In this document: positions 1,135 through 41,555 of the stretch, piece by piece
Position numbering within the stretch: position 1 is the first letter of the stretch
Layout: each line of letters opens with the position of its first letter
Origin: a virus
Lineage: Duplodnaviria; Caudoviricetes
Reading direction: 5' to 3' (one strand)
IMG/VR virus record: IMGVR_UViG_3300037851_000141
Span: 96,001-160,000 of that record
Length of the DNA stretch: 64,000 nt
Notes under the pieces: generated by a model
What the model was told of the DNA's origin: nothing
The model's database searches: none
What the model saw: the letters and a program-made list of their open reading frames with translations, nothing else
Position numbers and translations under genes: made by a program

Positions 1135-1842
1135 TTACAAACTTTTTAAAGATGAGATAAAGTTAGTAAGAGCTTCGGCAAAAAGTTCTTTACGATCTAT
1201 GGAATGTTTAGGTAGAATATTTACTTTTCTTTGTAATTTATTGACACATTCTAAAATAGTTCCATTATCGCCAATTATATATTCTTTATTTTCTAATATA
1301 CCTTCAACGAAACCTTCAGGGGCGCTTGGATCGGCAACAGCATCAACTGCGATCATTTCATAGGATTCGACTTGTTTAGAACCATCTGGATTTTGATTAT
1401 CGCTTAATGAACCAAGACCGCGAGTTGAAACGCCGATACGAAGTTTATCATCAAGGAAGGTTTGGAGCATTTTACCGCAAGGATGGGAGATTAGGACTTT
1501 AGCTTTACCAATACAATCATTACCTTGCCAGTCGAGATTTATGATATAGTGAGAAACCCGATCAAGGTTAATTTCAACACCTTCAGGATGGCCAAGTTCT
1601 CCCATTGAGCGGAGTCCTGTACTTGGGTTCATTCTTTCTTGCTTATATTTCTGTACAACACTTTCCATCAACTGTTTACCATATTTACGACCATTACGAT
1701 TTTTAGCTTCGCATTGGATAAAAGGTCCATTAATATAATAAGATTTTTGATATGAACCGTCGTCTTGCTTGAATTTCTCAATAATAGTTTCTACGGGTTG
1801 AATATCGAAGTTTTTGGCTTCAGTTATGAGAATCATTGACAT
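1135..1842 (-). CDS. gp21: Prohead protease (T4 gp21-like); likely start ATG 1842 (MSMILITEAK) rather than 1920
   Basis: Motifs NRNGRKY, GELGHP (catalytic His), GVSTRGLGS (catalytic Ser) and DAVADPSAPEGFVEGI. Sits between the gp67-like gene and gp22. Confidence 0.95.
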   Translation of the reverse strand: MSMILITEAKNFDIQPVETIIEKFKQDDGSYQKSYYINGPFIQCEAKNRNGRKYGKQLMESVVQKYKQERMNPSTGLRSMGELGHPEGVEINLDRVSHYIINLDWQGNDCIGKAKVLISHPCGKMLQTFLDDKLRIGVSTRGLGSLSDNQNPDGSKQVESYEMIAVDAVADPSAPEGFVEGILENKEYIIGDNGTILECVNKLQRKVNILPKHSIDRKELFAEALTNFISSLKSL

Positions 1843-1864
1843 TTTTACCGTCCCTGGCGAAGCG

Positions 1865-2053
1865 TTATTTATTGACTGATTCTGCTGCGGCTTTATTGGC
1901 AGTAGCATTAATCTCGTCAATGATCTTCGCCTTATTCTTATTTATACAATTATTTAGGGCATCTTTGACGGCATTTGGGAAGTGTTTATCAGCTTCGACG
2001 TAATCTTCTTTAGACATAGCTGATAAGAATTTTTTGAGTGCTTCTTTTGACAT
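1865..2053 (-). CDS. Small prohead core protein, gp67-like
   Basis: 62 aa, between portal and protease. FLSAMSKEDYVEADKHFPNAVKDAL resembles the pattern of T4 gp67 (IEAIKSNDLVAARKLFAEAM). Confidence 0.65.
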   Translation of the reverse strand: MSKEALKKFLSAMSKEDYVEADKHFPNAVKDALNNCINKNKAKIIDEINATANKAAAESVNK

Positions 2054-5026: not shown

Positions 5027-5084
5027 GATTACTCCCAATATATCATTATAATATAAGTTTGTAAATTATATTATAAGTCAAACC

Positions 5085-5569: not shown

Positions 5570-5781
5570 TTACTTTTTGGTATATATGTCCAGCCAAGAA
5601 AGAATTTAAGCCAGAACCGTTTCCATAGAGAAGGTTTTTTCATAACAGAAAATTTTAATCCAACATCGGTATCAATTTCTCCACAATAGGGAGTGTAATT
5701 ACAACAAATACCGTCAGTCTTCATTCCCATAATCATATTTGTTTGATTATCTCGTATATAAGGATGATTCATATCAGTCAT
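5566..5781 (-). CDS. Hypothetical protein
   Basis: 71-aa ORF, coupled by ATGA overlap to the upstream small ORF. Confidence 0.55.
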   Translation of the reverse strand: MTDMNHPYIRDNQTNMIMGMKTDGICCNYTPYCGEIDTDVGLKFSVMKKPSLWKRFWLKFFLGWTYIPKSN

Positions 5782-5948
5782 TTTTTATCCTGTTCTGGTT
5801 TCTGTTCTGGTTTCTGTGATGGTTTAGTATCTTCTATTAATTTCTTGATTGTATTTAGGGCTTCAATTATTTTTTGATGTTCTACTCTGGTTACTTGGGC
5901 CAATGATGATGCTTGGTCAAGGATTTGTAGGGCTTGTTCTGGAGTCAT
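5778..5948 (-). CDS. Small hypothetical protein (56 aa, MTPEQALQILDQASSLAQ...KPEQKPEQDKK)
   Basis: Below the ORF-track cutoff. ATGA overlaps at both ends (with 5945..6649 and 5566..5781). Contains a 12-nt tandem repeat. Confidence 0.65.
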   Translation of the reverse strand: MTPEQALQILDQASSLAQVTRVEHQKIIEALNTIKKLIEDTKPSQKPEQKPEQDKK

Positions 5949-6649
5949 GGTGTTTCCTTTATTGTACTTTTGAGTTCATCGTAAAGTTGGTAGATTCGTT
6001 TATTCCATTTAGCTTTATAAGTGTCATTTAAGTTATTTCTTATTTCTGGATGTGTCTTGTTTACATTATACCAGAAGAAGTCAATAAATTCTCTGTTTGT
6101 TTTTCCAAAGAAGTTATTAAATTGTTCAATAGTTTTTATTTTAGTTCTTAATAAGTCATAATATTTTGTAGCCATCTGTAGGTAATATGCGTTAAATTCC
6201 TTTGGACTATTATAATATTCTGGATCTGACAATATTGCCGTATTCTTATTTTGTTTTATTCGTTTATTATCGTTTTTATGGATTAATTCATGGATGATAA
6301 TATCTTTGTATTTTATTAAGAAATCTAAAATTTTATCGTTTTTTATATAGTCATCAACTTCTGGGTCTGTTTTTCTATCAAATACAAGTCCAGGACAAGA
6401 AACCTGTTTACCAGTTGAATCTCTGTATGTTATTTTTCCTATTCCAGTTCCACCATCATCATTTGTAAAAGCTAAACAAAATGGTTCATTAAGCATTTTA
6501 TCGAATCTATATATAAAACTATTGACTTTTATAACATCATTAAAGTTGTTTACGATTTTATAATATATTTCTTCAGCATCTCTTATTTGTTGTTCATCAC
6601 CTTCTCGCTCTGAAAATATATCAATTATTTTATTTTTTAAGTATTTCAT
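5945..6649 (-). CDS. HExxH (zincin-like) protein, paralog 1 of a 4-member family
   Basis: IIHELIH ... YYNSPKEFNAYY ... KWNKRIYQLYDELK; the same motifs recur in three other genes in the window. Confidence 0.8.
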   Translation of the reverse strand: MKYLKNKIIDIFSEREGDEQQIRDAEEIYYKIVNNFNDVIKVNSFIYRFDKMLNEPFCLAFTNDDGGTGIGKITYRDSTGKQVSCPGLVFDRKTDPEVDDYIKNDKILDFLIKYKDIIIHELIHKNDNKRIKQNKNTAILSDPEYYNSPKEFNAYYLQMATKYYDLLRTKIKTIEQFNNFFGKTNREFIDFFWYNVNKTHPEIRNNLNDTYKAKWNKRIYQLYDELKSTIKETP

Positions 6650-7499
6650 CGATTGTTCCAGTTTGTATTAATGGCAATTTTTCTTGAGTTACCATAAATA
6701 TTTCCATCGATACTCCATTATAGTTTATGATATGATTTGGCAGTATACGTCTAGTTTCATTGGCTTGTTCTTCCGTTATTTTTTTTCCTACTGTACATTC
6801 ATCGCCCATTAGGTTAGTCCTTTATTTTACTTTTGAGTTCGTCATAAAGTTGATATATACGTTTATTCCATTTTGTTTTATAAGTTTGATTAATGTATTT
6901 CAGAATATTGGGGTGCGTTTGTGAAATATAATTCCAAAATTTTGGTAAAAATTCTCTGTTGTCAGTTCCAAACAATTTATTAAATTGTTCAACGGTTTTA
7001 ATGTTTTTTACTATATCATATAACGTACTTGCGGCAGCCAAAAAATACGCATTATTTTCAAGAGGATGATTGTAATACTTCATTTTATCCGAATTAACAG
7101 AATTTAGTTGTACTGTCATTCTGTTATTGTCATTTTTGTGTATTAATTCGTGTATAATTGATTCTTTATTGTTTTGCCAAAATTTTTTTTATTTGATTAT
7201 TTTCTAAATATGGTATTATTTTATTTGATTCGACTGTGAAATCAAAAATAAGTCCAGGTAATCGATATCTAACATTTTTATCTAAAATATCAACATATCC
7301 AAAACCATGACCTTTACCGCCATTATCAATAAAAGATAAATAAAATTCATAACCAAGTATATCCGAAAAATTAAATATTGTTGAAAGGTTCGGTATAGTT
7401 TTTACTTTATTAAAATTATTTAATATTTTATAGTATATTTCTTCAGCATCTCTTATTTGTTGTTCATCACCTTCACGTTCTGAAAATATATCAATTATT
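6555..7499. repeat. 75-bp direct repeat (6555-6629 and 7425-7499; 72/75 identical, 870 bp apart) encoding the N-termini of paralogs 1 and 2
   Basis: Manual alignment of the two segments. Confidence 0.9.
6630..6809 (-). CDS. Possible small hypothetical protein (59 aa, MGDECTVGKK...)
   Basis: Fills the gap between paralogs 1 and 2. No recognisable motif. Confidence 0.35.
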   Translation of the reverse strand: MGDECTVGKKITEEQANETRRILPNHIINYNGVSMEIFMVTQEKLPLIQTGTIDEILKK

Positions 7500-7513
7500 C
7501 TCTTTTTCATCAT
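6814..7513 (-). pseudogene. HExxH paralog 2, split into ORFs 7166..7516 and 6814..7119 by a 1-nt frameshift in an A8 run (7183-7190)
   Basis: Removing one A gives ...NNQIKKFWQNNKESIIHELIHKNDNNRMTVQ..., continuous with the downstream ORF and of about the same length as paralog 1. Confidence 0.8.
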
Positions 7514-7528
7514 CAACTCCTGACAAAG

Positions 7529-7536
7529 TATTTATA
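7529..7536 (-). promoter_or_regulatory. Late promoter (HExxH paralogs 2 and 1)
   Basis: AATA-TATAAATA about 16-19 nt upstream of the start. Confidence 0.7.
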
Positions 7537-7560
7537 TATTATCAAAGAAGTTGTAATATA

Positions 7561-8535
7561 TCATCCATTCAACACCTTTTTCTGGTTATACGATTCAACT
7601 AAAGTTTTTATAATAGGTTCGTAATTGGATATCTTATCTATGAACTCACGGAACTTATTTTCTGACACATATTGGAATATTTGTTTACCATCAGCCATTA
7701 TATAATCATCCAGAGTTTGATTAAGAGTTTCAACAAGTTTAGCTGGAGTATATTGAAGGTCTATGAGGATTGTATTACGTTTAAATCCGATTTTAGCCTG
7801 TTTACCTATAGTCAGTGGGAAGTTGCAGCCATTTTCAGTAATCATAACTGGTTTATCATTTTCAAGAATTGGTGTTGTATCGTTATATAAGTCTTTAAGT
7901 AATTCTGGGGATTCGACCATTTTTTGGGCAGTTTTTTCGCCAAGTCTCTTTGTAACTGACTCATCTCCCATTTTTCTTCTGATTATATTTGGTACGTTAT
8001 CACCGGAGTCGCCACATATTATTTTTACTTTAAGTTCTTTTTCTGGATCTTCACTCTCTAAATAAACACCTTTAATCGGGTCAAACACAGAGACGTTATT
8101 ATATTTAAGTAATTGTTTGAAGTCGGTATCTGATGTTACTATTATTTTCTTTTCACCTTGATTTTGTTTAGCGATAGCACCAATAACGTCATCAGCCTCC
8201 ATAAAATTGACTTTGATTACATAGAAGGGGAAGTAGCATTTTAGGTCTTTAAACAGTTCATCCATAGTCGAATACAACCCATCCCAATCAATATGAGCTT
8301 GTTCTTCTCTCTTTTCTTTTCTATTGGCTTTATAATCAGGATAAATCTTTCTACGCCAATTTTGTTTAGAATCTGCTGCTATAACAACTTCGGTTGGCTC
8401 AAACTTACGGCAAAGATGAAAAATAGATTGAATCATTAGATGCTTAAAATAATTCCATCCCACATCTTCTATATCTTTACGAGCTACAAAAAAGTTACGA
8501 TAAGATAAGTGATTAAAATCTATAAGTAGCTGCAT
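7561..8535 (-). CDS. rnh: RNase H / 5'-3' exonuclease (T4 rnh, FEN-like); likely start ATG 8535
   Basis: LLIDFNHLSYRNF, DSKQNWRRKIYPDYKANR, EADDVIG, IVTSDTDFKQL, GDSGDNVP. Confidence 0.92.
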   Translation of the reverse strand: MQLLIDFNHLSYRNFFVARKDIEDVGWNYFKHLMIQSIFHLCRKFEPTEVVIAADSKQNWRRKIYPDYKANRKEKREEQAHIDWDGLYSTMDELFKDLKCYFPFYVIKVNFMEADDVIGAIAKQNQGEKKIIVTSDTDFKQLLKYNNVSVFDPIKGVYLESEDPEKELKVKIICGDSGDNVPNIIRRKMGDESVTKRLGEKTAQKMVESPELLKDLYNDTTPILENDKPVMITENGCNFPLTIGKQAKIGFKRNTILIDLQYTPAKLVETLNQTLDDYIMADGKQIFQYVSENKFREFIDKISNYEPIIKTLVESYNQKKVLNG

Positions 8536-8583
8536 TGAAGTTCTCCAAGCAACCATTATAGCTGAATCAAATAAGTAATCAAA

Positions 8584-10185
8584 TCATTTCTTTAGTTTAG
8601 ATAAGTCAATTTTTGGATAGCCGGAATCTTTTAATTTAAGTTCATCAGTTGTAAATATAGATTCTTCCAATTTACGACTTGTTAACTTATCACCTAAACG
8701 ACTTGGAACCGTAGCAATACCTTGAGTTGCGTTGACGGCTTGATTTACAGTACCATCAGCAGCACCAGGGCCAGCAACAGCAGCAGTTCCACACTCGTTC
8801 ATAGCAACATCAAGTATTTTGGCTTCACCAGACTTAAGTAATGATAACAGTTTAATCTGACTAATAAAAGACATTTCGCCATTATCTTTAGTTAATTGGA
8901 TACGACCATTCTTAAATTCTGGATTAACTGAGAAAATATCACCATTTATTTCTATATCTCTGCCTTTTAAGTTTTCAAGTTCAGATAGGTCAGTTGTTTT
9001 AGATAAGAGGGATTGATATGCTTCACGAACTGAGCAGAACATATCACTCTTTTCTTTAGGTTCAACAGTTTCAGCTTCATTCATTTCTGGCTTTGGTTCA
9101 TACATTTCATACCAGTAATTTGTTCCATCATACATAATTGAAACGTTATTATCAACCAAATAAGAATCTTCATCTTCGTCCAATTCATCAACTTGTTCAA
9201 AGCTTGTATCTGTGGCAACATCAAGATTATCATAATGGTTTTCTAAGTCATTATAATTTACATCATCTGATACTTTATCTTCGTCATTATGGATTTGTTC
9301 TGATGCGTAATCTGATATGCTTATTGGACTTAGATCGTTTTTAGCTTCGAGTACTTGGTCAATTTCTTCAAGCATTTTACGGAAGCTGGCTTGAAGACCA
9401 GTTAAGGCAGTTGACATACGTTCATCATTAGTCTTTTTAGTATCTTCGTGTGTTTCTGGGTTTACATCAACATCATTAGCTTTATACTTATCCCATTCTA
9501 TTTCTTCATTTAAGTTTTGTTTTTGTATTTCTTCTTTAGCTGTAGCAGTTGGTAATGGTTTTAACATGCTTATATCAATTTCTTCTGGGTTATTTTTATT
9601 ATCATACCAAATTACAGTAGCTTTTGATCTTCCAGGAACATATTGACGATTGCCGAATTTAGGAATAGCACCGACGCGAATTCTATTTTTTTCTAATGGG
9701 CTATTGGCAAGACGAGCATCAGAATAAGTAACATAATATCCACTTTGAGTTTCATTTTCTGGAGTAGCGATTGGGTCTGTGGTTGGAGCATCTTCTTTTA
9801 CAACTTTTTTAGCAGCAGCGAGTTCGGCTTTAGCAAGAGCAGCCTTTTCAGTTGCTTGTTTCTTATTAAGGTCTGCTATTTCTCCCATTTTTTTAGCTTT
9901 ATCTTGTTCCATTCTTGCTATATTAGTTGTGGTTGTTTCTTCATTTGTAGGAATAATATCTTTTCCTTCAGGCAATTCTTTAGGTAATGGTGCGTCTGGA
10001 ATTGATGATTGTAGTTTATCTTCTGGTTTGGCTTGAGGAAGAACATCAACAACAGGTTCTTCATAAATAACTTCATCATTGAGAACGCGAACACTATATC
10101 CATGTCCTTCAAGAATTGTATATTTTTGGTCTTTAGAAACTACATTAAAGCGTTGACCACGGTATTTAGCCTTCTGTTGTGCCAT
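8584..10185 (-). CDS. Large acidic hypothetical protein, possibly a virion internal protein
   Basis: 533 aa with patchwork composition. Late promoter TATAAATA 25 nt upstream. Many hydrophobic-X-E motifs. Confidence 0.6.
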   Translation of the reverse strand: MAQQKAKYRGQRFNVVSKDQKYTILEGHGYSVRVLNDEVIYEEPVVDVLPQAKPEDKLQSSIPDAPLPKELPEGKDIIPTNEETTTTNIARMEQDKAKKMGEIADLNKKQATEKAALAKAELAAAKKVVKEDAPTTDPIATPENETQSGYYVTYSDARLANSPLEKNRIRVGAIPKFGNRQYVPGRSKATVIWYDNKNNPEEIDISMLKPLPTATAKEEIQKQNLNEEIEWDKYKANDVDVNPETHEDTKKTNDERMSTALTGLQASFRKMLEEIDQVLEAKNDLSPISISDYASEQIHNDEDKVSDDVNYNDLENHYDNLDVATDTSFEQVDELDEDEDSYLVDNNVSIMYDGTNYWYEMYEPKPEMNEAETVEPKEKSDMFCSVREAYQSLLSKTTDLSELENLKGRDIEINGDIFSVNPEFKNGRIQLTKDNGEMSFISQIKLLSLLKSGEAKILDVAMNECGTAAVAGPGAADGTVNQAVNATQGIATVPSRLGDKLTSRKLEESIFTTDELKLKDSGYPKIDLSKLKK

Positions 10186-10714
10186 TTGATTCTTCCTTAT
10201 CGTTATCTTTATTTATACTCTTTTGTCTTAGTAATTCTGTCTTCATTCCATAAACAGCAATACAAACCGCATCAGCAATACCATCTGAGTCAGTTTTACA
10301 CCGCTTTGAAGCTTTCAGTGATATATCTGGGCAATTCTGTTTACAAAAATTTATAGCATCATCTTTATCAGCGGTATTAGCACCCAGAACTTCCTTTTTC
10401 CATTTTTGGGGAGTAACATAATAAAGTGGTATCTCAAGAATATCAAATATTGCGTGAAGTCCTCCAGCAGTCTGACCAAAAGAGAATATAGAAACAACAT
10501 TTTGATTAGGCATAGAACCAACCAATTCAATATACCCAGCATCAACTTTATGATTTTGTATATATTTGTAAACTGCGTTAAAATTAGTTATTATTGATTC
10601 TTTTTTAACTTTTTTTATTCTTTGGATTGGCATGGCAAGAACTTCAACAATTTTGCCACTTTCGCATATAGCAATACCGCCTTTATTCCCTGGGTCGATT
10701 CCTACTATTTTCAT
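10166..10714 (-). CDS. ruvC: RuvC-like Holliday junction resolvase
   Basis: IVGIDPG, YIELV, FSFGQTAG, VTPQKWKK and DGIADAVCIA acidic catalytic pattern. Confidence 0.88.
   Translation of the reverse strand: MKIVGIDPGNKGGIAICESGKIVEVLAMPIQRIKKVKKESIITNFNAVYKYIQNHKVDAGYIELVGSMPNQNVVSIFSFGQTAGGLHAIFDILEIPLYYVTPQKWKKEVLGANTADKDDAINFCKQNCPDISLKASKRCKTDSDGIADAVCIAVYGMKTELLRQKSINKDNDKEESNGTTEG
10210..10217 (-). promoter_or_regulatory. Late promoter (533-aa protein), inside the ruvC 3' end
   Basis: Exact match 25 nt upstream of the ATG. Confidence 0.6.
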
Positions 10715-11127
10715 TTAGCATCTTCTTTGTTGAAAAATTGAGTCAAGAACTTGCTATTACGAACTCCATTTACAAAATCAGCGTATTGAGATGAATCTGG
10801 TTTATGGCCAGTTATTTGAGTAAAGAGGATTCCGATTTCTTCCAATAACGGCTCAGAGGAACAGCATCCACCAACACACTCTTCTTTTATGATTATAGTT
10901 TTTGATTTCTTCCAAGATTCGCCTTCGTTATTACCATTTATTCTTATTTTATGCTGCCATTTATTCATTAGCGTGAAACTTTCAAGTGCGGGAATGAACT
11001 TAATGCCACATTTAGCGCAAGAATATTCATTACACTGAAGATTGCCCGGCTCCATAGTGACTTTTGTTGCGAGTTGGGTTGTTTCGCCGCCGCATTCTGG
11101 ACAGGCTACTTTTGGTTTATTATTCAT
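10711..11127 (-). CDS. Zn-ribbon hypothetical protein
   Basis: CPECGG ... CAKCG at the N-terminus. Confidence 0.65.
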   Translation of the reverse strand: MNNKPKVACPECGGETTQLATKVTMEPGNLQCNEYSCAKCGIKFIPALESFTLMNKWQHKIRINGNNEGESWKKSKTIIIKEECVGGCCSSEPLLEEIGILFTQITGHKPDSSQYADFVNGVRNSKFLTQFFNKEDAK

Positions 11128-11524
11128 TGTTTAATCCTAATTTGGTAAAAAGATTTTGTTCCTTAAATACATTTTTTATATAATTAAGGTTATCTTTTGA
11201 GAAGTAAGGTTTTTTAATCATTTTCTTTTCTTCTGTAAAAAACAATTGATGTCTGGAGTTCATTATAGTAGAACCGTCGATGATATTGTAATACTTTAGT
11301 AATGACTTGACTTCTTTTTCTACAAATAAATAGTTCTCTGCTAATTGGGATTTACATAGATTATAATACGATTCAAGTACAGGCCCAATTTCTTTATCAG
11401 CTTCTTTTAATATAGAGAAAATCAATTTAAGTTCTGGTTCACCTAAGACATGACCATCACGGAGCCTACGAGAATATTCCAATGACTCAAGATGGCGGTC
11501 CAGACGTTTTATAATTTCGGTCAT
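11120..11524 (-). CDS. Hypothetical protein
   Basis: 134-aa ORF, first gene after the late promoter at 11582-11589. Confidence 0.6.
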   Translation of the reverse strand: MTEIIKRLDRHLESLEYSRRLRDGHVLGEPELKLIFSILKEADKEIGPVLESYYNLCKSQLAENYLFVEKEVKSLLKYYNIIDGSTIMNSRHQLFFTEEKKMIKKPYFSKDNLNYIKNVFKEQNLFTKLGLNNE

Positions 11525-11581
11525 AATGATTCTCCAACTGGATATTATAGCAAACTTTGGTATAATATTATCTGGTATATA

Positions 11582-11589
11582 TATTTATA
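11582..11589 (-). promoter_or_regulatory. Late promoter (11524 - ruvC operon)
   Basis: Exact match in the divergent intergenic region. Confidence 0.55.
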
Positions 11590-11603
11590 GAAAAGAGGAC
11601 ACT

Positions 11604-12107
11604 ATGAACGACATCAACTTAGCCAAATACGAAAAACCTGAAAAAGTACAGGAGTATGTTGCCAAAATAAAAGAAGTACAATCAAAAGTAGCAGAAAAGC
11701 TATCATCATATCAAGAATCGGTAACTGGTGATTTAACTGACCTAAAGAAAACAACCTTAGCTGAAGAAACCAAGAGAAACATCGACCTTTATCACAAATA
11801 CAACGTAATATGGTCAAAAGAAAAGATTCAACTAAGTAATCTTAAAGGCAAACTTGATATTATTGAATCAGAATTAACAGACTATTATCGCAACCATTCT
11901 GATATAAGTTCTAAACTCAGATCGGAACAAGCGATAGAGAAATATGTTGTATGTCATGATTGTTATAGAGCTATCAAGAGTCTTTATGATACCCAATATA
12001 TTACAACTCAGTTTATTGAGAATGTTATGATAATGATTAAAGACCGGGCATTCGCAATAAAGAACATGATTGAGTTAATAAAGATTGAAATGGGTATGAT
12101 ATCGTAA
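11604..12107 (+). CDS. uvsY: UvsY-like recombination mediator; likely start ATG 11604 after GAGGA
   Basis: C-terminal FIENVMIMIKDRAFAIKNMIELIK resembles UvsY. Immediately precedes uvsW, as in T4-like phages. Confidence 0.7.
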   Translation: MNDINLAKYEKPEKVQEYVAKIKEVQSKVAEKLSSYQESVTGDLTDLKKTTLAEETKRNIDLYHKYNVIWSKEKIQLSNLKGKLDIIESELTDYYRNHSDISSKLRSEQAIEKYVVCHDCYRAIKSLYDTQYITTQFIENVMIMIKDRAFAIKNMIELIKIEMGMIS

Positions 12108-13543
12108 TGACTATATATTGGGCTAAAATTTATAAAAAAGATAATGTTTGGGCGAGAATATCAAGCAATCACCCAAGCATAGTATCTGATTTATATAACT
12201 ATTTTTCAACATATGCTAAGAATTATAAGTTTATGCCCAAATATAAAGCTGGTATATGGGATGGTAAGATTTATTTTATGAAGAAAGATGGTACATTTCC
12301 TATTGGTTTATTGAAATATGTACTTAAGTTTATAAAGCAAGATGGATTACATGTTCAAGTAGATAAAGCGTTATTACAAACTTATGATGTTTCTGATTTT
12401 ACTGAGGTCACTGAATCTTGGTTATTAGATTGTTGGATACCATTACCACACCAAGTAGAGGGTGCGGTTGCGTGTTTAACTCATAGAAGAGGGACATTAG
12501 AACACGCAACATCAAGCGGCAAATCTTTAACTATTGCTCTTATTATAATGTATGCGCTTAAAAAAGAAATATGTAAAAAAGCACTTATATTAGTTCCAAA
12601 CACGGGCCTTGTTGAACAAATGGCAGCAGATTTATTATCATATGGTGTTCCAGAGAATATGATTGGTAAATTTTGGGGTGGTAAAAAAGATTTTGAGACA
12701 GAAATAACAATATCAACATGGCAATCAATGGCAAGACAACCAGCATTCGTAAAAGCGTTTGATATTGTTATTTGTGACGAAGCTCATGGAGTTAAGGCTA
12801 AAGAGTTTAATAATGTTGCTAAGAATGTTGAAAATGCTATTATGAGATTTGGATGTACTGGAACCATGCCGGAACTAAAATGTGAACGGTGGCCAGTTGA
12901 AGGTATGCTTGGTCAGGTTCTTCATATAGTAACAACGAGAGAACTTATTGATAAAGGATATGCGGCTGATGTTTCAATTAAGATAATATCAATAGTACAT
13001 AACGAAGAAGTAAAAAAGAAATTAAAAGGCGCTCCATATGATGTTGAACGTGATTTTATTGAAGCTTATGATAAAAGAAATAACCTTATTAAATTTATAG
13101 CTGATAAACATATTAAGGTTGGACATAATACTCTTATTCTTGTTGACCATATTGACCAAGCTAAGTTACTGGTTAAGAAAATTGAAGCCATATGTGAAAA
13201 TGTATTCCTTATTATTGGAGATGTTCATCCTAAAAAGAGAGAAGAACTTCGAAACTTTGTCAATGAAAATAAGGGATGTGTAATCGTAGCAACTCCTGGA
13301 GTATTCTCAACTGGTGTTTCAATTAAAAGATTACATGCCATTATTTTCGTTGCTGCTGGTAAATCTAAGTATCGTACAATTCAATCTATAGGAAGAGGTA
13401 TCCGACTTCACAAAGAAAAAAATAAACTTTCGTTGTATGATATTAGTGACGATCTTAAATACGGATCTGACCATTTACAAGAAAGAATTAAAATGTACAC
13501 TAAAGCAGAATTTGACATAGAAGTAAAAGAAGTGAGTTTTTAA
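12107..13543 (+). CDS. uvsW: UvsW SF2 DNA helicase
   Basis: YKFMPKYKAGIWDGKI, ATSSGKS, ITISTWQS, CDEAH, GCTGT, FSTGVSIKRLH, QSIGRGIRL. Confidence 0.95.
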   Translation: MTIYWAKIYKKDNVWARISSNHPSIVSDLYNYFSTYAKNYKFMPKYKAGIWDGKIYFMKKDGTFPIGLLKYVLKFIKQDGLHVQVDKALLQTYDVSDFTEVTESWLLDCWIPLPHQVEGAVACLTHRRGTLEHATSSGKSLTIALIIMYALKKEICKKALILVPNTGLVEQMAADLLSYGVPENMIGKFWGGKKDFETEITISTWQSMARQPAFVKAFDIVICDEAHGVKAKEFNNVAKNVENAIMRFGCTGTMPELKCERWPVEGMLGQVLHIVTTRELIDKGYAADVSIKIISIVHNEEVKKKLKGAPYDVERDFIEAYDKRNNLIKFIADKHIKVGHNTLILVDHIDQAKLLVKKIEAICENVFLIIGDVHPKKREELRNFVNENKGCVIVATPGVFSTGVSIKRLHAIIFVAAGKSKYRTIQSIGRGIRLHKEKNKLSLYDISDDLKYGSDHLQERIKMYTKAEFDIEVKEVSF

Positions 13544-13544
13544 T

Positions 13545-15431
13545 ATGGCAGCCTTTAAGAACATAACCAATATCCCCGTTAAAATAATGTTGAATGGCGA
13601 AAGAAAAACCATTAATCCTGGACAAGTTATTCATGGGCCTGATTCGCTATCCGCTATTCCAGGTCTACAGATGGCGAATAAACAAGCCAGAACAGTTATC
13701 CTTAATCAAAAATCAAATAATACATTAGATACAACCATAAAATTAAACGAACCAATAAAAATACCAGAATCAGAACTTCAAACTGATTATAGTCAGCAAA
13801 TCAATCAAACAATAACTTATCTAAATTATTATAAAAATATAGGACGTTCACCTTCGGTTTCTATAGCAATTTTAACTAAGAACTCATTACATCTTATAAA
13901 AGCATGTTGTGATTCAATTATACAAAAAGTTAAATATCCAAATACAACAATAATGATATGTGATACCGGAAGTGATCAGAAAAATGTATATGATTATTAT
14001 GAAACGGTGAAACAATCTTGTGAACAAAAAGGATTTCAATATAAACTTATTCAATTAAGACATTATCAATATAGTGAGAATTATAATGAGATATCTAAAC
14101 ATGTTGATACAGATTTCTTTTTATTACAAAACAATGATACTGTAGCTCTTAATGATTATATTTCTGAAATGATGGAAATAGCAGTTTTTTCAAACGTAGG
14201 ATCAGTTGGGTGTAGAATGTTATATCCTGATGGTAGAATTCAACATGATGGTCAACATATATTCCAGCCAAACGGTCAACATGTTCCTGGTACTGCTGGA
14301 CATTTACATTTAGGAGCCAGACCCGAACAAATTAATCCAAAAGAACCTAAAATAAAAATAGTTGATGGTAATACTGCTGCCGGTTGTTTAATGAGAACAT
14401 CAGATTATAGAAAATTGAATGGACTTGATGTTAATTATAAAGATATTTTTCAAGATGTTGACATAATGATAAGAATTCCAAATATTCTTAATACGTTCAA
14501 TTACTGTAATAGAAATGCTCTTATTATACATCATGATAACGCAAGTCGAATGGGCACGATGAGAGATCCTAAACGACTTCAACAAATGAGAGATGACACT
14601 TACTATCTTAAACATAAATGTGATTCTAATGGGTGGCAACGAAAAAATCCTAAACAAGTTGATTTTAGTATTATAACACTTGTTCATAATTACGACAGTT
14701 ATAAAGATTTGTTAAACACATTAAGAATTCAACAAGGTAATTTTTCAATAGAACTTATAGCTATACCAAATTTTTATAATCAATTCAATAACATGTATAA
14801 AACACTGAATAACGCTATTGATGTATCTAATGGTCGTTATTTAATGTTTATTCATGATGATGTTCTTGTTTCTAAAGACTTCTTATCTTCAATAGTAAAT
14901 AATATTAGAACCTTTAATAAAAATGGTATCGGGTGGGGGGTTCTTGGCCCTGCTGGTATATTTATGGATGCTGCTGAATCGGCATTTTATTTATTAGATA
15001 AAGATAATAAGATATTGTCAGCATCTAATAATATAGCAAAAAATAAACAATTTCACGAAGTCACATCTTTAGATGAATTGTGCTTAATAATAGATAAACA
15101 AAGTGGTTTAAGATTTTCAAGTAATTTATGTGGATTTCATTTCTATGGGGCTGATATATGTTTGTCTGCTAAAATTCAAGGTTTTAGTAATTTTGCTATT
15201 AACGCATATTGTCATCATAAATCAGACGGAAGTAAAAATTTAAGTGATTCTAAACAGTTTGAGGCATACCGTAATCAAGCATTCGCATTTCATAAACATG
15301 CTAAATTATTAGGACAGAAAAAATGGCGATCAACAACAGCAAGAGGTATAGATAATAACGTGATAATCTTCGCTGTTCCAGAATATCTAAAAAAAGAAAC
15401 TGGTAAAGATGTTCTCATTTACCAACTGTGA
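13545..15431 (+). CDS. Two-domain GT-A (GT2-like) glycosyltransferase with an N-terminal extension
   Basis: Domain 1: SIAILTKN, ICDTGS, LQNNDT, VGCRMLYPDGRIQHDG, FQDVD. Domain 2: FIHDDV, LDELCL, FHFYGADICL. Confidence 0.85.
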   Translation: MAAFKNITNIPVKIMLNGERKTINPGQVIHGPDSLSAIPGLQMANKQARTVILNQKSNNTLDTTIKLNEPIKIPESELQTDYSQQINQTITYLNYYKNIGRSPSVSIAILTKNSLHLIKACCDSIIQKVKYPNTTIMICDTGSDQKNVYDYYETVKQSCEQKGFQYKLIQLRHYQYSENYNEISKHVDTDFFLLQNNDTVALNDYISEMMEIAVFSNVGSVGCRMLYPDGRIQHDGQHIFQPNGQHVPGTAGHLHLGARPEQINPKEPKIKIVDGNTAAGCLMRTSDYRKLNGLDVNYKDIFQDVDIMIRIPNILNTFNYCNRNALIIHHDNASRMGTMRDPKRLQQMRDDTYYLKHKCDSNGWQRKNPKQVDFSIITLVHNYDSYKDLLNTLRIQQGNFSIELIAIPNFYNQFNNMYKTLNNAIDVSNGRYLMFIHDDVLVSKDFLSSIVNNIRTFNKNGIGWGVLGPAGIFMDAAESAFYLLDKDNKILSASNNIAKNKQFHEVTSLDELCLIIDKQSGLRFSSNLCGFHFYGADICLSAKIQGFSNFAINAYCHHKSDGSKNLSDSKQFEAYRNQAFAFHKHAKLLGQKKWRSTTARGIDNNVIIFAVPEYLKKETGKDVLIYQL

Positions 15432-15443
15432 AAAAAAATAATC

Positions 15444-15452
15444 TGATATAAT
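15444..15452 (+). promoter_or_regulatory. Extended -10 sigma70-like promoter TGATATAAT
   Basis: The same 9-mer recurs at 27150-27158 and 46571-46579, each just upstream of a gene. Confidence 0.6.
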
Positions 15453-15478
15453 ATAACAACTCAATAAAGGAAAATAAT

Positions 15479-16006
15479 ATGAATAATGAACAAGACCTCG
15501 TAACAAACTTAATCAAGGAACATATTAATATACACGAACAAGAACGTATAACAGATCAAAAAGAAAAAGATGAAATATTAAAAACTCTCATTATAGACAA
15601 CATTATCGATATAAGTCCTGAAAATGAATCAAATTTCAATCATTTAGAAAAAGTGTGTTGTGAGAAAATTAAACAACTTGATTCTATGCCGAATGTAAAT
15701 CCTTGCGAAATTAGTGAAGAGTTCTGTTCTTTAATGGAAAATATGAGAAATACATCAATGAAACGTTTAAACAGAATTGTTGATCGTTCTATGAAGTTAT
15801 CAATTCCATTAAAACAATATGACCAATTTTTAGATATTCTTGGACATTTAGATCCAGATTTCAAAGAGCAAATTAATAAAATATCTTATTATCCTGATAA
15901 ACAAAAAGAATATATTGACGATTACGTTTCATCAAAATTTTCAATGATTTTCGACAAACTGAACATGTTTGCCAAATTTTTAGACCTGTTGAAAAAAGAT
16001 AGTTGA
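15479..16006 (+). CDS. Hypothetical protein
   Basis: 175-aa ORF with AAGGA RBS and a TGATATAAT promoter upstream. Confidence 0.65.
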   Translation: MNNEQDLVTNLIKEHINIHEQERITDQKEKDEILKTLIIDNIIDISPENESNFNHLEKVCCEKIKQLDSMPNVNPCEISEEFCSLMENMRNTSMKRLNRIVDRSMKLSIPLKQYDQFLDILGHLDPDFKEQINKISYYPDKQKEYIDDYVSSKFSMIFDKLNMFAKFLDLLKKDS

Positions 16007-16084
16007 AATCTAAAAATACTTGAGTAGAATGTAACGTCATCAGTAGGTGGTTATTCCACTGAAGTACATATAAGTATAATCAAG

Positions 16085-16400
16085 TAATATCCGTTGAGGT
16101 TTCAGACTACGGTTCCTGCTAAACTCAGTATACACCGTTATGGTCAATATACTGTAAAAAAACCGGGGAAGAGGTCATTGTTAGGTGAGTAATAGCCTCT
16201 AACAATGGCGGGATGAGCGGATACATCTGAGCAATCGTACCTATTACCGACTGAAACATAAGACACCAACAGTCGAAAAATAAATTGGATTCTGCGCGGA
16301 TGGTCACATATTTTCTGATGTAGGAACTTATTTTTTATGTAATAAGTTCTGGTGGGAATATATGTACCAACTCCAATTTTCGGCTAACTTCGCCCCAAGA
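16085..16400 (+). ncRNA. Candidate structured non-coding RNA (strand uncertain)
   Basis: Only long ORF-free gap in the window (16007-16626). Contains at least six stems, some nested. TATAAT at 16075-16080. No known family recognised. Confidence 0.45.
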
Positions 16401-16505
16401 GAAACTTTTAAATTCAAGGCTTCTATGTAGGAATATATAAAAGAGAAACCTTGGTAATAAACTTCAATCTTATAAAATTGTTAAATGAGATTTTAGATAA
16501 GAATA

Positions 16506-16556
16506 AAAAAAGATTTCGACAAAAAAGATAAAATTGATTAAGAAAAAAGATTTCGA
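16506..16556. repeat. Direct repeat AAAAAAGATTTCGA x2 (16506-16519, 16543-16556) in a very A-rich tract
   Basis: Read directly; a partial third copy lies at 16521-16530. Confidence 0.8.
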
Positions 16557-16626
16557 AAAAAATTAAAGAAAAATGAAGGGTCAAATTCTAAACTAATATA
16601 AACAAAGATAGGATATAATAATAAAA

Positions 16627-17355
16627 ATGAAGAAGATTATAAAAGAAGTTAAGTTGTTATTAGAATATAATGAGAGTTTATTTATTGAGAGAGAAAATGA
16701 CCATAAACAAAGATATTTAGCATATCAGATATTAATACAAATAAAAAAGTATATTGAACTAAAAAAATATAAAGAAATAACACTTAAATCTAAATACGAT
16801 AATGTTGTTATTTCTTTAAACGAATTACATATGAATTTAGATATTGTTTTTTCTATTCGCCCACCAGATGAATGTTATGCTGCCTATGGTGATAATGAAG
16901 TTACGAAAAATAAAATGATTCTTATAAATGTAGGTGTCAACGATAGGATTCTTGAACTATATTACAAAAAAGAATACCATAAAATAATAAATGAAAATGA
17001 ACTATCTTTGATTCATGAAATTATACATTATTTAGATGATTTAAGAACAGAAGGTAAATATAGATTATCAAACAATTATAAGTTAAACAGTTATCCAAAC
17101 TATCCTTCGGAATGGAATGCGTATTATCAAGAAGTAGCAAGTCATTACGATACTATAATTAAACAAATACAACAGATATCAGATAAGAATAATAGAATCC
17201 AAGAATTTTATAAACAAATAGGTAGAAGTCCTTTAGATTTGATTAAAAGAATAGTTAAAGATAATGATATAAAGAAAAATTATAAAGAACAATATTATTT
17301 CAAGTTTGTTAAAAGAATCTATCAGTTATATTATGAATTATTTGATTTATTATAA
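16627..17355 (+). CDS. HExxH protein, paralog 3
   Basis: LIHEIIHYLD, YPNYPSEWNAYYQEVA, KRIYQLYYEL. Confidence 0.8.
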   Translation: MKKIIKEVKLLLEYNESLFIERENDHKQRYLAYQILIQIKKYIELKKYKEITLKSKYDNVVISLNELHMNLDIVFSIRPPDECYAAYGDNEVTKNKMILINVGVNDRILELYYKKEYHKIINENELSLIHEIIHYLDDLRTEGKYRLSNNYKLNSYPNYPSEWNAYYQEVASHYDTIIKQIQQISDKNNRIQEFYKQIGRSPLDLIKRIVKDNDIKKNYKEQYYFKFVKRIYQLYYELFDLL

Positions 17356-18495
17356 TCCCAATTCTTTTAACATTTGTATAGTATGTTTAGCTGATGTATG
17401 AAGGATACCTGTTCCACCAGCTTGAATCCATTTGTTTATTTTTTCTGGAGTATCATCAATAAGAATATCATTTGGTCCACGAACATATCTATACTTATCT
17501 GGATTTAGGATTATTTTAGAAACTCCATCCCAACCATTTTTACATTTAGTTTGTAATCTGTTATTAGCCAATTCTGGAAGATTTTTTTCAATCCATTTCA
17601 TTTTACCAGAAACAGATTTAGGATCTCTTGATGGAGCGGATAATATAGTAGGATTTTGATTTTTTATATAATCCCATAGTTCTTTACCATCAGGCATCCA
17701 AGGCATTTCAGACCAGAATTCTTCACCAAAAGATTCCATTTTCTTCCAAAAAGCGTCTTTACCATATTTTTCTTGATATTCTTTAGGTCCAAGATTCTCA
17801 CCACTTAAATTTCTAAAATGGGATTCCAAATCACATAAACAGCCATCTAAATCTTGAAAAATTTGATATTTAGTTTCATTTTCCAATAAGGTACTAAACA
17901 CTTGTGATAATCTGTTTCCGTTATTTTCTTTCATGACCTTAAATACTTTCTTAGCTGTTGGACCTACGGAAATACCACCCCAGCGTCCATCGTTTACGTG
18001 TCCTAAATTATAACCGGCCAGTGTAGCTTTTTCCCAATTATTCTTTTTCTTTTCTTTAAGTGTATAAGGATTTTGATTGTTCTGATTATAAAATTGTGGT
18101 GGGTCAAATACTTTAGTTTGTTTGAACCAATTTTTTATAATTTTCATAGCATCATTAGAAACTCGTCCTTCAGATCCCAATATAAGTTTATGATTGCCGG
18201 GTTTATTGCCATTTGGTGCTGGTATATTATCTGCGTTGTCTTTAACTTTTATTATTCCTGCTATACGTAGATTCTTATTTGTTGGATCTGAATCTGGTGC
18301 GACTATGAAATCCCATCCCATATTATCTGCTGGATTTATATATTCTGGAATTTCGCCATAGTCAAAAGGTATAGGTTCTTCGACCCCCCATTTTTGTTTA
18401 GTGTTTCTTTTTTCTTCTACTCTTATTCTTGGTAATGATTTTTGGAGAATGTCAACTATTTGTTCCAATGAGACAACTTGTTTGATTCCGGTCAT
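17350..18495 (-). CDS. Fusion of an inorganic-pyrophosphatase-like domain and a HAD 5'(3')-deoxyribonucleotidase (NT5C-like)
   Basis: N-terminal PIPFDYGEIPEYINPADNMGWD. C-terminal DLDGCLCD, ILSAP, GKMKWI, ILIDD, KWIQAGGTGILH. Confidence 0.75.
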   Translation of the reverse strand: MTGIKQVVSLEQIVDILQKSLPRIRVEEKRNTKQKWGVEEPIPFDYGEIPEYINPADNMGWDFIVAPDSDPTNKNLRIAGIIKVKDNADNIPAPNGNKPGNHKLILGSEGRVSNDAMKIIKNWFKQTKVFDPPQFYNQNNQNPYTLKEKKKNNWEKATLAGYNLGHVNDGRWGGISVGPTAKKVFKVMKENNGNRLSQVFSTLLENETKYQIFQDLDGCLCDLESHFRNLSGENLGPKEYQEKYGKDAFWKKMESFGEEFWSEMPWMPDGKELWDYIKNQNPTILSAPSRDPKSVSGKMKWIEKNLPELANNRLQTKCKNGWDGVSKIILNPDKYRYVRGPNDILIDDTPEKINKWIQAGGTGILHTSAKHTIQMLKELGL

Positions 18496-18497
18496 AA

Positions 18498-18530
18498 TAT
18501 AAATACCTTTAGTTGTATAATGTATTTATA
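18498..18530. promoter_or_regulatory. Two opposing late promoters (+ 18498-18505; - 18523-18530)
   Basis: Both exact TATAAATA; each lies upstream of one of the divergent genes. Confidence 0.7.
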
Positions 18531-18551
18531 AGTTTACTGAAGGAATAAATA

Positions 18552-19277
18552 ATGTCAATAAATAAGCAGATAAAAATCATATTAAGTAGAAACGAAACTA
18601 TATTAAACGAGAGAACCGGCGATAAACAACAGAGAGTAGAAGCTGAAAAATTGTTGAGTTTGATAAAAAAATATCTTAATCAAAAATCATATAAAGTACA
18701 AAAATATAACAATAAGAATTCTACAGTTAAGATTCCGCTTAATGATATTGGTTTGAATCTTGATTTAGCTTTTTCTTATAAACCAAACAATCCAGAATAT
18801 GCTGCTTTTGGAATAAGTGATACAACAGGAAATAAGGTTATAGAAATAAATGTTGGATGTGTTGATAATCCTGGTCTAAAAAAGTTATTTGATTTAGGTT
18901 TATACGAAGATATTGTTATTGATGGTTCTTTATCATTAACACACGAACTTATACATTATTTAGACTCAATAAGAACCGCAGATGGATATAGACTTGGTAA
19001 AAAGACTGATTACTACAATAGTCCATCTGAATTTAATGCGTTTTATCAGGAAGTTGCCAGCAAGTATGACGGGATAATAGAAAATATAAAGAAATCGGAA
19101 CAAACTAAAGAAAAAAGGATTCATAGATTTTATAAAGATGTTGCTGAGTCTCCGAATGAGTTGATACGAAAAATATTTGACGATAATCCTTTTTACAATA
19201 ACTATAATAAAGAATATAAGTTTAAGTTGATAAAAAGAATCTATCAGTTGTTCTATGAACTTATATCTGAACTATAG
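18552..19277 (+). CDS. HExxH protein, paralog 4
   Basis: LTHELIHYLD, DYYNSPSEFNAFYQEVA, KRIYQLFYEL. Confidence 0.8.
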   Translation: MSINKQIKIILSRNETILNERTGDKQQRVEAEKLLSLIKKYLNQKSYKVQKYNNKNSTVKIPLNDIGLNLDLAFSYKPNNPEYAAFGISDTTGNKVIEINVGCVDNPGLKKLFDLGLYEDIVIDGSLSLTHELIHYLDSIRTADGYRLGKKTDYYNSPSEFNAFYQEVASKYDGIIENIKKSEQTKEKRIHRFYKDVAESPNELIRKIFDDNPFYNNYNKEYKFKLIKRIYQLFYELISEL

Positions 19278-26438: not shown

Positions 26439-27083
26439 TTAGCCCAATAAACGATCATCTTTTTTATGATAATCTAAATTTTTTAAGTAATCTTCGACAT
26501 ATTGTTTTTTAGCTTCGCTCTTTTTCTTTTCTTTTTTGATAACTTGAATAAATGCGTTTTTAACAATTTCTGTACAATAAGCGAATGCGTTATTACTTTT
26601 TTCTGGATTAAATGACCGACTATATTTAAGTAAAAAGAACGTAGCTCTGGACTTCATTTCTTCAAGATAGGTGTATCCAGAATAGCATGGTTTGGTTGCG
26701 TAGTTTTCAATAAGGTCAAGGAACATTTCACCAAGTCGTTCCGTTGCTCTGCCATTACAAGGTCGTTTAAACACATTATCATATTCAGCTTTTTTATCTT
26801 TTAGTTTATTTTTTAAGTCAGTTAATGTATTTTCTCTTGGTCGTTTTAGTTGTTGATATTCTTCAAGTTCATTCTTAAGAGAAACGATTTCTTCTTTTAT
26901 TTTTTTAAGTTCTTCTTTCTTTTGTTCTTTTTCAACTTCAACGGTAGCTTTGAATGCTTGAAGTTCTTTTATTAGTTCGGCATTGTTTACGTGCTGTCTC
27001 TTTATTATCTTTATTTTACCTTTACCACGTTTACGATTTTTTAGTTCTTTATTATTCTGAAAAAGAGACTTGTCTGTAAACAT
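26439..27083 (-). CDS. gp55: Late-transcription sigma factor (gp55) with a coiled-coil insertion
   Basis: HVNNAELIKEL, RLGEMFLDLIENYATKPCYSGYTY, FNPEKSNNAFAYCTEIVKNAFIQVIKKEKK. Adjacent to gp47/46. Confidence 0.9.
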   Translation of the reverse strand: MFTDKSLFQNNKELKNRKRGKGKIKIIKRQHVNNAELIKELQAFKATVEVEKEQKKEELKKIKEEIVSLKNELEEYQQLKRPRENTLTDLKNKLKDKKAEYDNVFKRPCNGRATERLGEMFLDLIENYATKPCYSGYTYLEEMKSRATFFLLKYSRSFNPEKSNNAFAYCTEIVKNAFIQVIKKEKKKSEAKKQYVEDYLKNLDYHKKDDRLLG

Positions 27084-40788: not shown

Positions 40789-41507
40789 CCGCAGATTATC
40801 AGAAATTTGAGATTATATTCGATGCTGATGGGGTTCCAGTTACTCTTTTTGAGATTGAAAACTGGTGGGCAAACGCTAATGTCAATCAGAGGCGAGGATT
40901 ACTAAGTCCAGATTTGGGTGATGATGCTCGTATAAAAATTGCTCAACGAATAGTACAAGAGTTGCGACAAAGATTTAGTAAAGAACAACTCGAAATAATC
41001 CGAAGCTTTGAACGACAAAAAATAAAAGTAAAACATAATTGGGAAGCATATAAACCAAATTCAAGGATTGGTTATGATAGCGATCTTGAAAGTATAAAGA
41101 AAAAAGATTTTGAGTTTTACAGTGGAGAGACATATGAACATAATCAACCTCAATATACTCCACCAGTTCCACCACGACCGCCTGATCTAAATCCAATTCC
41201 AGATGGCGATATCTTTACTGCCGCAATGAGAAAAGCCAATGAAAAACTAAGAAGAGAACAGGAACAAATAAGGGCAAGAGAACGTTATCAACAATGGCAA
41301 AGGCAACAAGCTGAACTTAATAAGCCAAAAGAACCAAAACGGACTTGGCAGGATGTTCTTGGTCTTCCTGGTAAAGTATCCATAGAACAGCTAAATAAAG
41401 CCTTCCGTGATCTGGCTAAGAAAAATCACCCTGACGTTGGTGGTTCTGAAGAAAAGATGAAAGAACTTATTGATGCCAGAAATCAGGCGTTAAAAGAAAT
41501 TGGTTGA
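40785..41507 (+). CDS. J-domain (DnaJ-like) protein with the J domain at the C-terminus
   Basis: WQDVLGL ... KAFRDLAKKNHPDVGGSEEKMKEL (HPD motif). Confidence 0.85.
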   Translation: MTADYQKFEIIFDADGVPVTLFEIENWWANANVNQRRGLLSPDLGDDARIKIAQRIVQELRQRFSKEQLEIIRSFERQKIKVKHNWEAYKPNSRIGYDSDLESIKKKDFEFYSGETYEHNQPQYTPPVPPRPPDLNPIPDGDIFTAAMRKANEKLRREQEQIRARERYQQWQRQQAELNKPKEPKRTWQDVLGLPGKVSIEQLNKAFRDLAKKNHPDVGGSEEKMKELIDARNQALKEIG

Positions 41508-41555
41508 ATAGTTAAATCCATTGGTTATAATTTTAGGCTAAATAAGGGATTCATA

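Follow-up and report, generated by a model that had tools for sequence, protein, structure and literature searches.

A 64,000-nucleotide stretch of phage DNA (the window, positions 96001-160000 of IMG/VR record IMGVR_UViG_3300037851_000141) was found to encode four members of a family of HExxH proteins which we propose to be zincin-type peptidases targeted to the phage head, processed there by a T4 gp21-type protease and carried into the host with the DNA. We give this proposal, which draws on sequence, structural models and analogy with T4, a probability of about 0.6; what we infer within it is that the leader targets the protein and is cut at the junction, that the protein is ejected and acts as a peptidase, and what kind of substrates it has. 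The source is the record of a T4-type freshwater jumbo phage (331,849 bp, 92% complete), and positions below are those of the window unless given as genome positions.

The sequence-only reading of this DNA had described a four-member family. The genome contains six paralogs, one of them broken, with four in the window and two (C and D) outside it, and all six copies are stand-alone proteins, not fusions. They are listed here with the associated reading frames, a slash marking the predicted leader junction:

5945-6649, minus strand: paralog A1, 234 amino acids (aa), leader MKYLKNKIIDIFSE/REGD, with HELIH, E..NAY and KRIYQLY
6814-7516, minus strand: paralog A2, frameshifted; its N-part open reading frame (ORF) is 7166-7516, with leader MMMKKRIIDIFSE/REGD
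6814-7188, minus strand: open frame of the A2 C-part, which holds HELIH, E.NAY and KRIYQLY
7169-7188, minus strand: interval of the A2 frame shift, with A/T homopolymer runs
6630-6809, minus strand: 59-aa ORF between A2 and A1, no family match
16627-17355, plus strand: paralog B1, 242 aa, leader MKKIIKEVKLLLE-YNESLFIE/REND, with two hydrophobic-x-E sites
18552-19277, plus strand: paralog B2, 241 aa, leader MSINKQIKIILSRNETILNE/RTGD, the protein used for the structure model
genome 185554-186297, plus strand: fifth copy (outside the window), junction TIVE/REGD
genome 242414-243124, plus strand: sixth copy (outside the window), junction IIVE/REND

The motifs HE[LI]IH, Y-x-N-x-P-x-E-x-NA[YF] and KRIYQL[YF]xEL, on which the family had been recognized, were found in all four window paralogs, as were the junctions IFSE/R, IFSE/R, LFIE/R and ILNE/R followed by x-[GN]-D. 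Residues invariant in the six copies include H131, E132, H135, N156, E160, N162, A163, K228, R229, Y231, Q232 and L233 (numbering throughout is that of the 18552 protein, B2). Identity between paralogs was 43-55% in the catalytic and C-terminal helices as against only 17-18% in the sheet region lining the cleft. Positions 6814-7513, earlier taken for one gene, do not form a single open frame, since the frame shifts by one base somewhere in 7169-7188: the N-part of A2 runs for 116 codons to a stop at 7168-7166, and the sequence from HELIH onward is read in the following frame, whose open stretch begins at 7188. Alignment of the A2 and A1 DNA placed one extra base in A2 within an A/T-rich stretch, and both halves of A2 were 52-54% identical to A1; A2 is thus a pseudogene, or the extra base comes from the assembly or belongs to a programmed frameshift.

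An AlphaFold2 model of B2 obtained with a 109-sequence alignment had a predicted local distance difference test score (pLDDT) of 93.1 and a predicted template modelling score of 0.87, compared with a pLDDT of 77.6 when six sequences were used. The model consists, in order, of a helix at 3-18, a break at 19-23, a helix at 24-43, five strands, the HExxH helix 126-141 containing H131, E132 and H135, a loop, a Glu helix at 158-182 and a helical bundle whose last helix is the conserved K-x-x-KR-x-YQLY helix. The same order of elements has been described for zincin-like peptidases by Iyer et al. 2017 (PMC5512222). E160 is located 25 residues past HExxH at the start of helix 158-182 and, from this position, is the putative third zinc ligand. 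The glutamate had already been suggested as a possible ligand, and that suggestion gains from its invariance in the 109-member alignment and its place on the helix after HExxH. H131, E132 and H135 were likewise invariant in this alignment, D24, N162, A163 and R229 were at least 90% conserved, D138 (HExxHxxD) was present in 96 of the 109 members, and HExxH was retained in 131 of 132 domain hits.

Foldseek weakly matched the fold to an ImmA/IrrE (M78) AFDB cluster (probability 0.98, E 1.3e-2) and to many M48 entries. Weak similarity was also seen to atlas clusters of M78 and M48 (template modelling score 0.37-0.52) and to PprI (Z 5.6, root-mean-square deviation 3.8, 98 residues aligned); HtpX was matched at an E of about 2e-2, and M3 peptidases and the HExxH domain of ChlB at Z 3.6-4.9. 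The best structural matches overall were phage proteins without annotation. The Foldseek comparison proposed with the sequence-only reading gave weak matches to known zincins, and the confident model has a zincin-like architecture. By profile comparison none of the five ORF products searched had a significant Pfam or PHROG match, and searching PDB sequences with a profile turned up no credible match. The sub-threshold Pfam matches of single members were all to peptidase families (M90, M76, Tox-MPTase2/3, M78, M43). Peptidase_M78 (PF06114) was matched by only one of the 109 members, below the cut-off (E 0.009), and MPTase-PolyVal (PF18818) was matched neither in the whole genome at E<=10 nor among the Pfam matches of the 109 members. 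ART-PolyVal had no match in this genome. SprT-like (PF10263), which has been cited for group 2.2 jumbo phages (PMC7824862), had genome matches at E<=10 at 183573-183704 and 63392-63454, none of them at a paralog. Assignment to the zincin superfamily is sound on the motif in the sequence and the architecture of the model, with no close characterised relative.

A profile built from the six paralogs retrieved 848 cluster representatives (clusters at 50% identity) at E<=1e-3 and 176 at E<=1e-10 from 1.84 billion proteins, nearly all of them from phages, and a single match in 185,579 prokaryotic species genomes. With the six-paralog alignment as query, 17 loci were found in IMG/VR contigs of up to 214 kb. 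Among 50,697 phage records, a 15-kb megablast and tblastn of two paralogs found Salicola phage SCTP-2 only, two distant members used as tblastn queries brought in one more phage, an uncultured huge one, and a word-indexed protein search returned a single relative. SCTP-2 gp462 matched the family profile at E 1.8e-41. Two weaker profile matches in SCTP-2 (MF360958), at 41047-41700 and 243686-244039, and several SCTP-2 proteins among the BFVD structural neighbours were also observed, and suggest that this phage has a paralog expansion as well. A match to T4 modB (AF158101 12888-13091, E 0.0023) covered the C-terminal helix of the profile only and was judged probably spurious. We found no paper describing the family, which is unnamed and uncurated. 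The targeting system is already known, and packaged zincins have already been predicted in the literature.

The proposal that these proteins are packaged by way of a leader cleaved by gp21 is supported indirectly, because the phage has gp21 and gp23 homologs, the leaders resemble the T4 capsid targeting sequence (CTS), one such leader also stands on an unrelated late protein, and homologs in another phage, PA5oct, are annotated from virions. A T4-type head module lies at the left end of the window, comprising scaffold (phrog_237), protease (phrog_207), portal and head closure protein. The protease is the presumed enzyme removing the paralog leaders:

1135-1920, minus strand: prohead (head maturation) protease, T4 gp21 homolog, phrog_207 E 4.7e-50

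Its identity to T4 gp21 is 35% (E 2e-25), and the GELxHP and GVSxRG blocks, which surround the catalytic His and Ser, are conserved. For the major capsid protein (genome 94566-95924) the identity to gp23 is 33%. T4 gp23 is cut at FLTE/AEIGG, after Glu65, and at this position the capsid protein of the present phage reads VLNE/SGTASE/AGLG, with L-N-E as P3-P1 just as in paralog B2 (ILNE/R). A phrog_207 protease was encoded by 8 of 8 family-carrying genomes tested at >=26% completeness, this genome included; the sole tested family-carrying record without it was an 18%-complete fragment.

Across the family, [LIVFMYC]-x-[ED] ended 3-7 residues before D24 in 101 of 107 members, compared with 27% at other positions. 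Stand-alone members had a modal leader of 7-13 aa, examples being MKLDQLFE/ASEWRD, MRLNELFE/A, MKFKEFLTE/RESKD, MKLKNILTE/A and MKTLKEILVE/K. The T4 CTS is MKTYQEFIAE (PMC8442874, PMC5694885), and the corresponding T4 N-termini (AF158101) are MKTYQEFIAE/A for IpII and IpIII, MAKINELLRE/S for gp24 and MELITE/LFDE for Alt. The leaders of the present phage are 13-29 aa long and end in FSE, FIE, LNE or IVE, with tandem hydrophobic-x-E sites in three paralogs (LLLE-YNESLFIE, LLFE-HGIIVE and IVLE-NRTIVE). In the B2 model the leader forms the separate helix 3-18 at a pLDDT of about 75, and the break at 19-23 coincides with the junction. The leader of paralog D (14 residues, MSFKNYFNKHLLFE) recurs as MSFKSFLNEQLLFE (E 1.3e-5) on an otherwise unrelated 149-aa protein (L042; genome 171210-171659, plus strand), which has an exact TATAAATA late-promoter box upstream, has only the leader in common with paralog D and is a candidate for further head cargo. 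CTS-like starts were also seen in late proteins at genome 194013, 203511, 226764 and 36243, none in Pfam or PHROG. Beside the paralogs, eight proteins of this genome with CTS-like N-termini belonged to no Pfam or PHROG family.

Virion evidence comes from Pseudomonas phage PA5oct, in which the adjacent genes EST35_0380 and EST35_0381 (QCG76260.1, QCG76261.1) matched the family profile at E 2.9e-14 and 5.1e-10, the alignment spanning HELRH or HELQH with x-x-D, E-I-N-A and KR-x-Y-x-LY. Both are labelled in GenBank 'structural protein, ESI-MS/MS' (electrospray ionization tandem mass spectrometry), and 93 virion-associated proteins of PA5oct have been identified by this method (PMC7318152). Both homologs and an unrelated 64-aa neighbour, 0382, have the common leader x-[RK]-[LI]-x-E-[IF]-x-L-x-E. 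The shared leaders, of this set and of paralog D with the 149-aa protein, favour a portable tag. Delivery with the DNA gains further indirect support from relatives joined to ART-PolyVal in giant polyvalent proteins, a class for which Iyer et al. 2017 (PMC5512222) predict injection.

Late expression was assessed from the T4-type late-promoter box. Exact TATAAATA was not enriched in the window (16 occurrences vs 15.5 expected). In the whole genome 62 of 80 occurrences were followed within 80 nt by a gene on their own strand, the scaffold, protease and portal genes among them. The one-mismatch form TATAAACA was so placed in 6 of 45 cases, and single-mismatch variants generally in about 0-29%. 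Because exact TATAAATA is non-randomly placed upstream of genes, we read the sequence as that of a phage using T4-type late promoters, the exact box being their only credible form. Exact boxes at the paralogs are as follows:

7529-7536, minus strand: exact TATAAATA late-promoter box of A2, 23 nt upstream of an ATG at 7513 and 26 nt upstream of a TTG at 7516
18498-18505, plus strand: exact TATAAATA box of B2, beginning 54 nt upstream of the B2 start
18523-18530, minus strand: exact TATAAATA box of gene 17350-18495, forming a divergent pair with 18498-18505

The exact boxes claimed at 7529 and 18498 were thus found as described. The one-mismatch TATAAACA at 16597 is not upheld as a promoter, given the 6 of 45 placement of this form. 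Late expression, earlier assumed for the family, holds as a prediction for the unit running from 7516 to 5945 and for the gene at 18552 and lacks an exact promoter for B1, C and D. A1 has no promoter of its own and sits downstream of A2 and the 59-aa ORF with no terminator-like site between; the A2 box probably serves A1 also, and the 59-aa ORF is probably co-transcribed with its neighbours. Scans for sigma-70 promoters and terminators gave chance-level results only. The two divergent boxes (18498-18530) were observed inside a single 56-nt intergenic region, and the product of gene 17350-18495 is a 381-aa protein whose C-terminal part matches a 5'-3' deoxyribonucleotidase PHROG.

Taken as a mechanism, the proteins would be made late with a short N-terminal propeptide working like the T4 CTS, and this leader would dock them into the scaffolding core of the prohead. 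The gp21-type protease would then cut after the Glu of hydrophobic-x-Glu, a few residues ahead of the helix that opens the catalytic core, and the mature enzyme of about 220 aa would remain in the head with the DNA and enter the host at infection. There it would most likely cleave host proteins, and since the paralogs vary most in the beta-sheet rim of the cleft, each of the six would have substrates of its own; on the sequences compared, the divergence of the sheet region would fit such diversified substrates.

Several points weigh against the proposal. The evidence on this phage itself consists of DNA sequence and models, and the virion evidence is by homology. Foldseek of both models against PDB gave nothing at E<=1e-3, and the VIA structure searches gave Z values <8 dominated by the C-terminal helical bundle. 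No exact TATAAATA was found upstream of B1, C or D, the last two lying outside the window. The 'structural' label of the PA5oct homologs is a record of presence in purified virions, not of head location or ejection. A leader matrix derived from 46 stand-alone members ranked T4 Alt, IpII and IpIII only 10th-14th of 223 ORFs; because it failed to single out known gp21 substrates, the leader motif must be regarded as low in information and unspecific, and leader similarity is used here as a resemblance and not as a statistic. At 13-29 aa the leaders of this phage exceed the T4 CTS in length. The T4 rule of (L/I)-x-E, cited earlier, is followed by ILNE, TIVE and IIVE and departed from by two forms, IFSE and LFIE, in which P3 is Phe and not Leu or Ile. 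The strongest conservation in this region is at D24, R28 and A31, which start the first core helix, while the Glu reached about half in the automatic alignment; D24, conserved in 107 of 109 members, caps that helix and stands four residues after the junction Glu, which makes the conservation of the junction in part a structural one. Finally, the internal domain copies of polyvalent proteins keep a hydrophobic-x-Glu (SITE/G, ILTE/K). Since the motif is kept internally and 4-6 residues before a near-invariant Asp, it could be a part of the fold and not a cleavage site; the I/L-x-E of the internal copies is compatible with processing between domains as well as with a structural role.

These last observations, with the unspecific matrix and the three of six paralogs that have no recognisable late promoter, are what one would expect if the proteins were unpackaged cytoplasmic enzymes, for example cleaving host or phage regulators as ImmA/IrrE zincins do, with hydrophobic-x-Glu...Asp being simply the N-terminus of a structured domain. 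The junction would then adjoin a structural element marked by D24 and the highly conserved R28 and A31, and ImmA/IrrE are indeed the nearest named folds. We nevertheless consider this explanation unlikely. The PA5oct homologs were recorded in purified virions, the N-termini of stand-alone members are narrow in length (mode 7-13 aa) and CTS-like in composition, one leader is common to an unrelated late protein, the leader is modelled as a separate helix of lower confidence, and the family co-occurs with gp21-type protease genes.

A second alternative accepts packaging and places the activity inside the capsid, where the proteins would trim other cargo or polyvalent proteins, or themselves serve as inner-body material, and would not attack host proteins after injection. 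It draws on the fusion relatives of the family. P0075 (2207 aa) combines DUF5662, ART-PolyVal and two copies of the family domain; P0013, P0042, P0046, P0047 and P0079 carry 2-3 copies, and some fusion relatives have weak PARP-like matches. Polyvalent proteins have been predicted to be packaged and injected with DNA, their zincin domains either processing the polyprotein, with autoproteolysis favoured, or acting as effectors (Iyer et al. 2017, PMC5512222). The favoured autoproteolytic role, the occurrence of 2-3 copies between other domains of giant proteins and the 'structural' label of the PA5oct homologs would all suit a function within the head. In the present phage, however, none of the six copies is part of a fusion, neither ART-PolyVal nor MPTase-PolyVal has a match in the genome, and a gp21-type protease already explains head processing; copy-number variation and the divergent cleft (17-18% vs 43-55%) fit an arms race better than a housekeeping function. 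We therefore hold a head-internal role to be quite improbable. A different arrangement was observed at IMG/VR loci L013, L015 and L017-L022 (at about 5614-8355), which encode proteins of 811-914 aa beginning MNSTHIKE/ANVEQD, in which the family domain leads and is followed by another HExxH domain (THELGHRFW ... EEAFAEAF) with weak Reprolysin_3 and DUF6782 matches.

That the proteins have a non-peptidase or non-catalytic role, such as metal-dependent binding or other chemistry on a zincin-like scaffold, is in keeping with the weak structural match to the HExxH domain of the oxygenase ChlB (8s5f) and with the lack of a close peptidase relative, but is very improbable given that two glutamates, the general base within HExxH and the putative third ligand, do not vary among 109 sequences and that the sub-threshold Pfam matches fall entirely in peptidase families.

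Injected proteins act before any phage gene is expressed and are prime candidates for counter-defence. If the proposal of head-targeted, injected zincins is true, proteolysis would be added to the injected toolkit of T4-type phages, and the signature of leader plus HExxH...E..NA...KRxYQLY would annotate hundreds of hypothetical proteins of large phages; gp380 and gp381 of PA5oct provide a testable case in a cultured phage. A wider reading, which we offer only tentatively and think doubtful, is that this large, almost exclusively viral zinc-peptidase family (at least 848 clusters) belongs to the regular head cargo of large T4-type phages, tagged by a capsid-targeting propeptide, activated when the prohead protease removes that propeptide, injected with the DNA and cutting host defence or regulatory proteins within the first seconds of infection. 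Six-copy expansions would then be the trace of an arms race in which substrates are at stake. A latency switch could be provided by the near-invariant Asp that follows the cleavage site, silencing the enzyme until the leader is cut.

Further features of the window touch on late transcription and the head. A candidate late sigma factor was located with T4 gp55 as query:

26439-27083, minus strand: candidate gp55-like late sigma, 214 aa, weak tblastn match (E 1e-3 at genome 122442-122750)

This ORF has a late-promoter box itself. The portal gene (2066-5038, minus strand) encodes 990 aa, and its PHROG portal match is interrupted by an insert of about 400 residues matching intein- or homing-endonuclease-bearing families; from these matches the portal protein probably contains an intein. 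A 533-aa protein without annotation (8584-10185, minus strand) has an exact late promoter at 10210-10217, and its C-terminal end, ...AMNE/CGTAAVAGPGAADGTVNQAVNATQG, resembles the propeptide junction of the capsid protein, ...VLNE/SGTASEAGLGCTDGTVNQAINGQQG; it may be a further gp21 substrate or a core protein interacting with the capsid.

Of the known systems, the T4 internal proteins IPI, IPII, IPIII and Alt, which carry a CTS (Mullaney and Black 1996; PMC8442874, PMC3012670, PMC5694885), provide the closest model for delivery. In both, a hydrophobic-x-Glu motif closes a short leader (about 10 aa in T4), the genome encodes a gp21-type protease, and the cargo, predicted in the present phage, is diverse and fast-evolving with only the tag in common, a tag that seems portable between unrelated proteins. 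Late promoters are a further parallel, seen in the present phage at two of the paralog transcription units. They differ in the cargo, which here is a predicted enzyme of the zincin superfamily, whereas among the T4 cargoes cited no peptidase is described: IPI* is a restriction inhibitor and Alt an ADP-ribosyltransferase, and the set, with IpII and IpIII, comprises small inhibitors, basic proteins and that one ADP-ribosyltransferase. The leaders of this phage are also longer than those of T4, some with two tandem sites, and their targeting and cleavage are predicted from sequence.

PA5oct EST35_0380 and EST35_0381 resemble the present paralogs in HExxHxxD, E-x-NA, the KR-x-Y-x-LY C-helix and the CTS-like leader, and that phage also has a gp21-type protease. 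They are distant homologs, missed by tblastn at 1e-3, with 'EINAR' in place of 'EFNAY' and two copies as opposed to six.

The polyvalent MPTase domains (Iyer et al. 2017, PMC5512222; PF18818) likewise have HExxH with a Glu on the next helix, and in one phage clade an Asp three residues past HExxH (PMC5512222), the position of D138 here. Relatives of the present family, sometimes in several copies, occur in giant ART-PolyVal proteins, and for both groups delivery with the DNA is predicted. Unlike those domains, the family has no PF18818 match, is mostly stand-alone at about 235 aa, bears a T4-type leader and is without the conserved His at the end of strand 2.

The minimal gluzincins of the ImmA/IrrE (M78) and M48 groups are the nearest annotated folds, and in them too the sheet is followed by the HExxH helix and then by the Glu helix. 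Structural similarity to them is weak and sequence similarity not significant, and the family is set apart from both by its extra C-terminal helical bundle with the invariant K-x-x-KR-x-YQLY helix.

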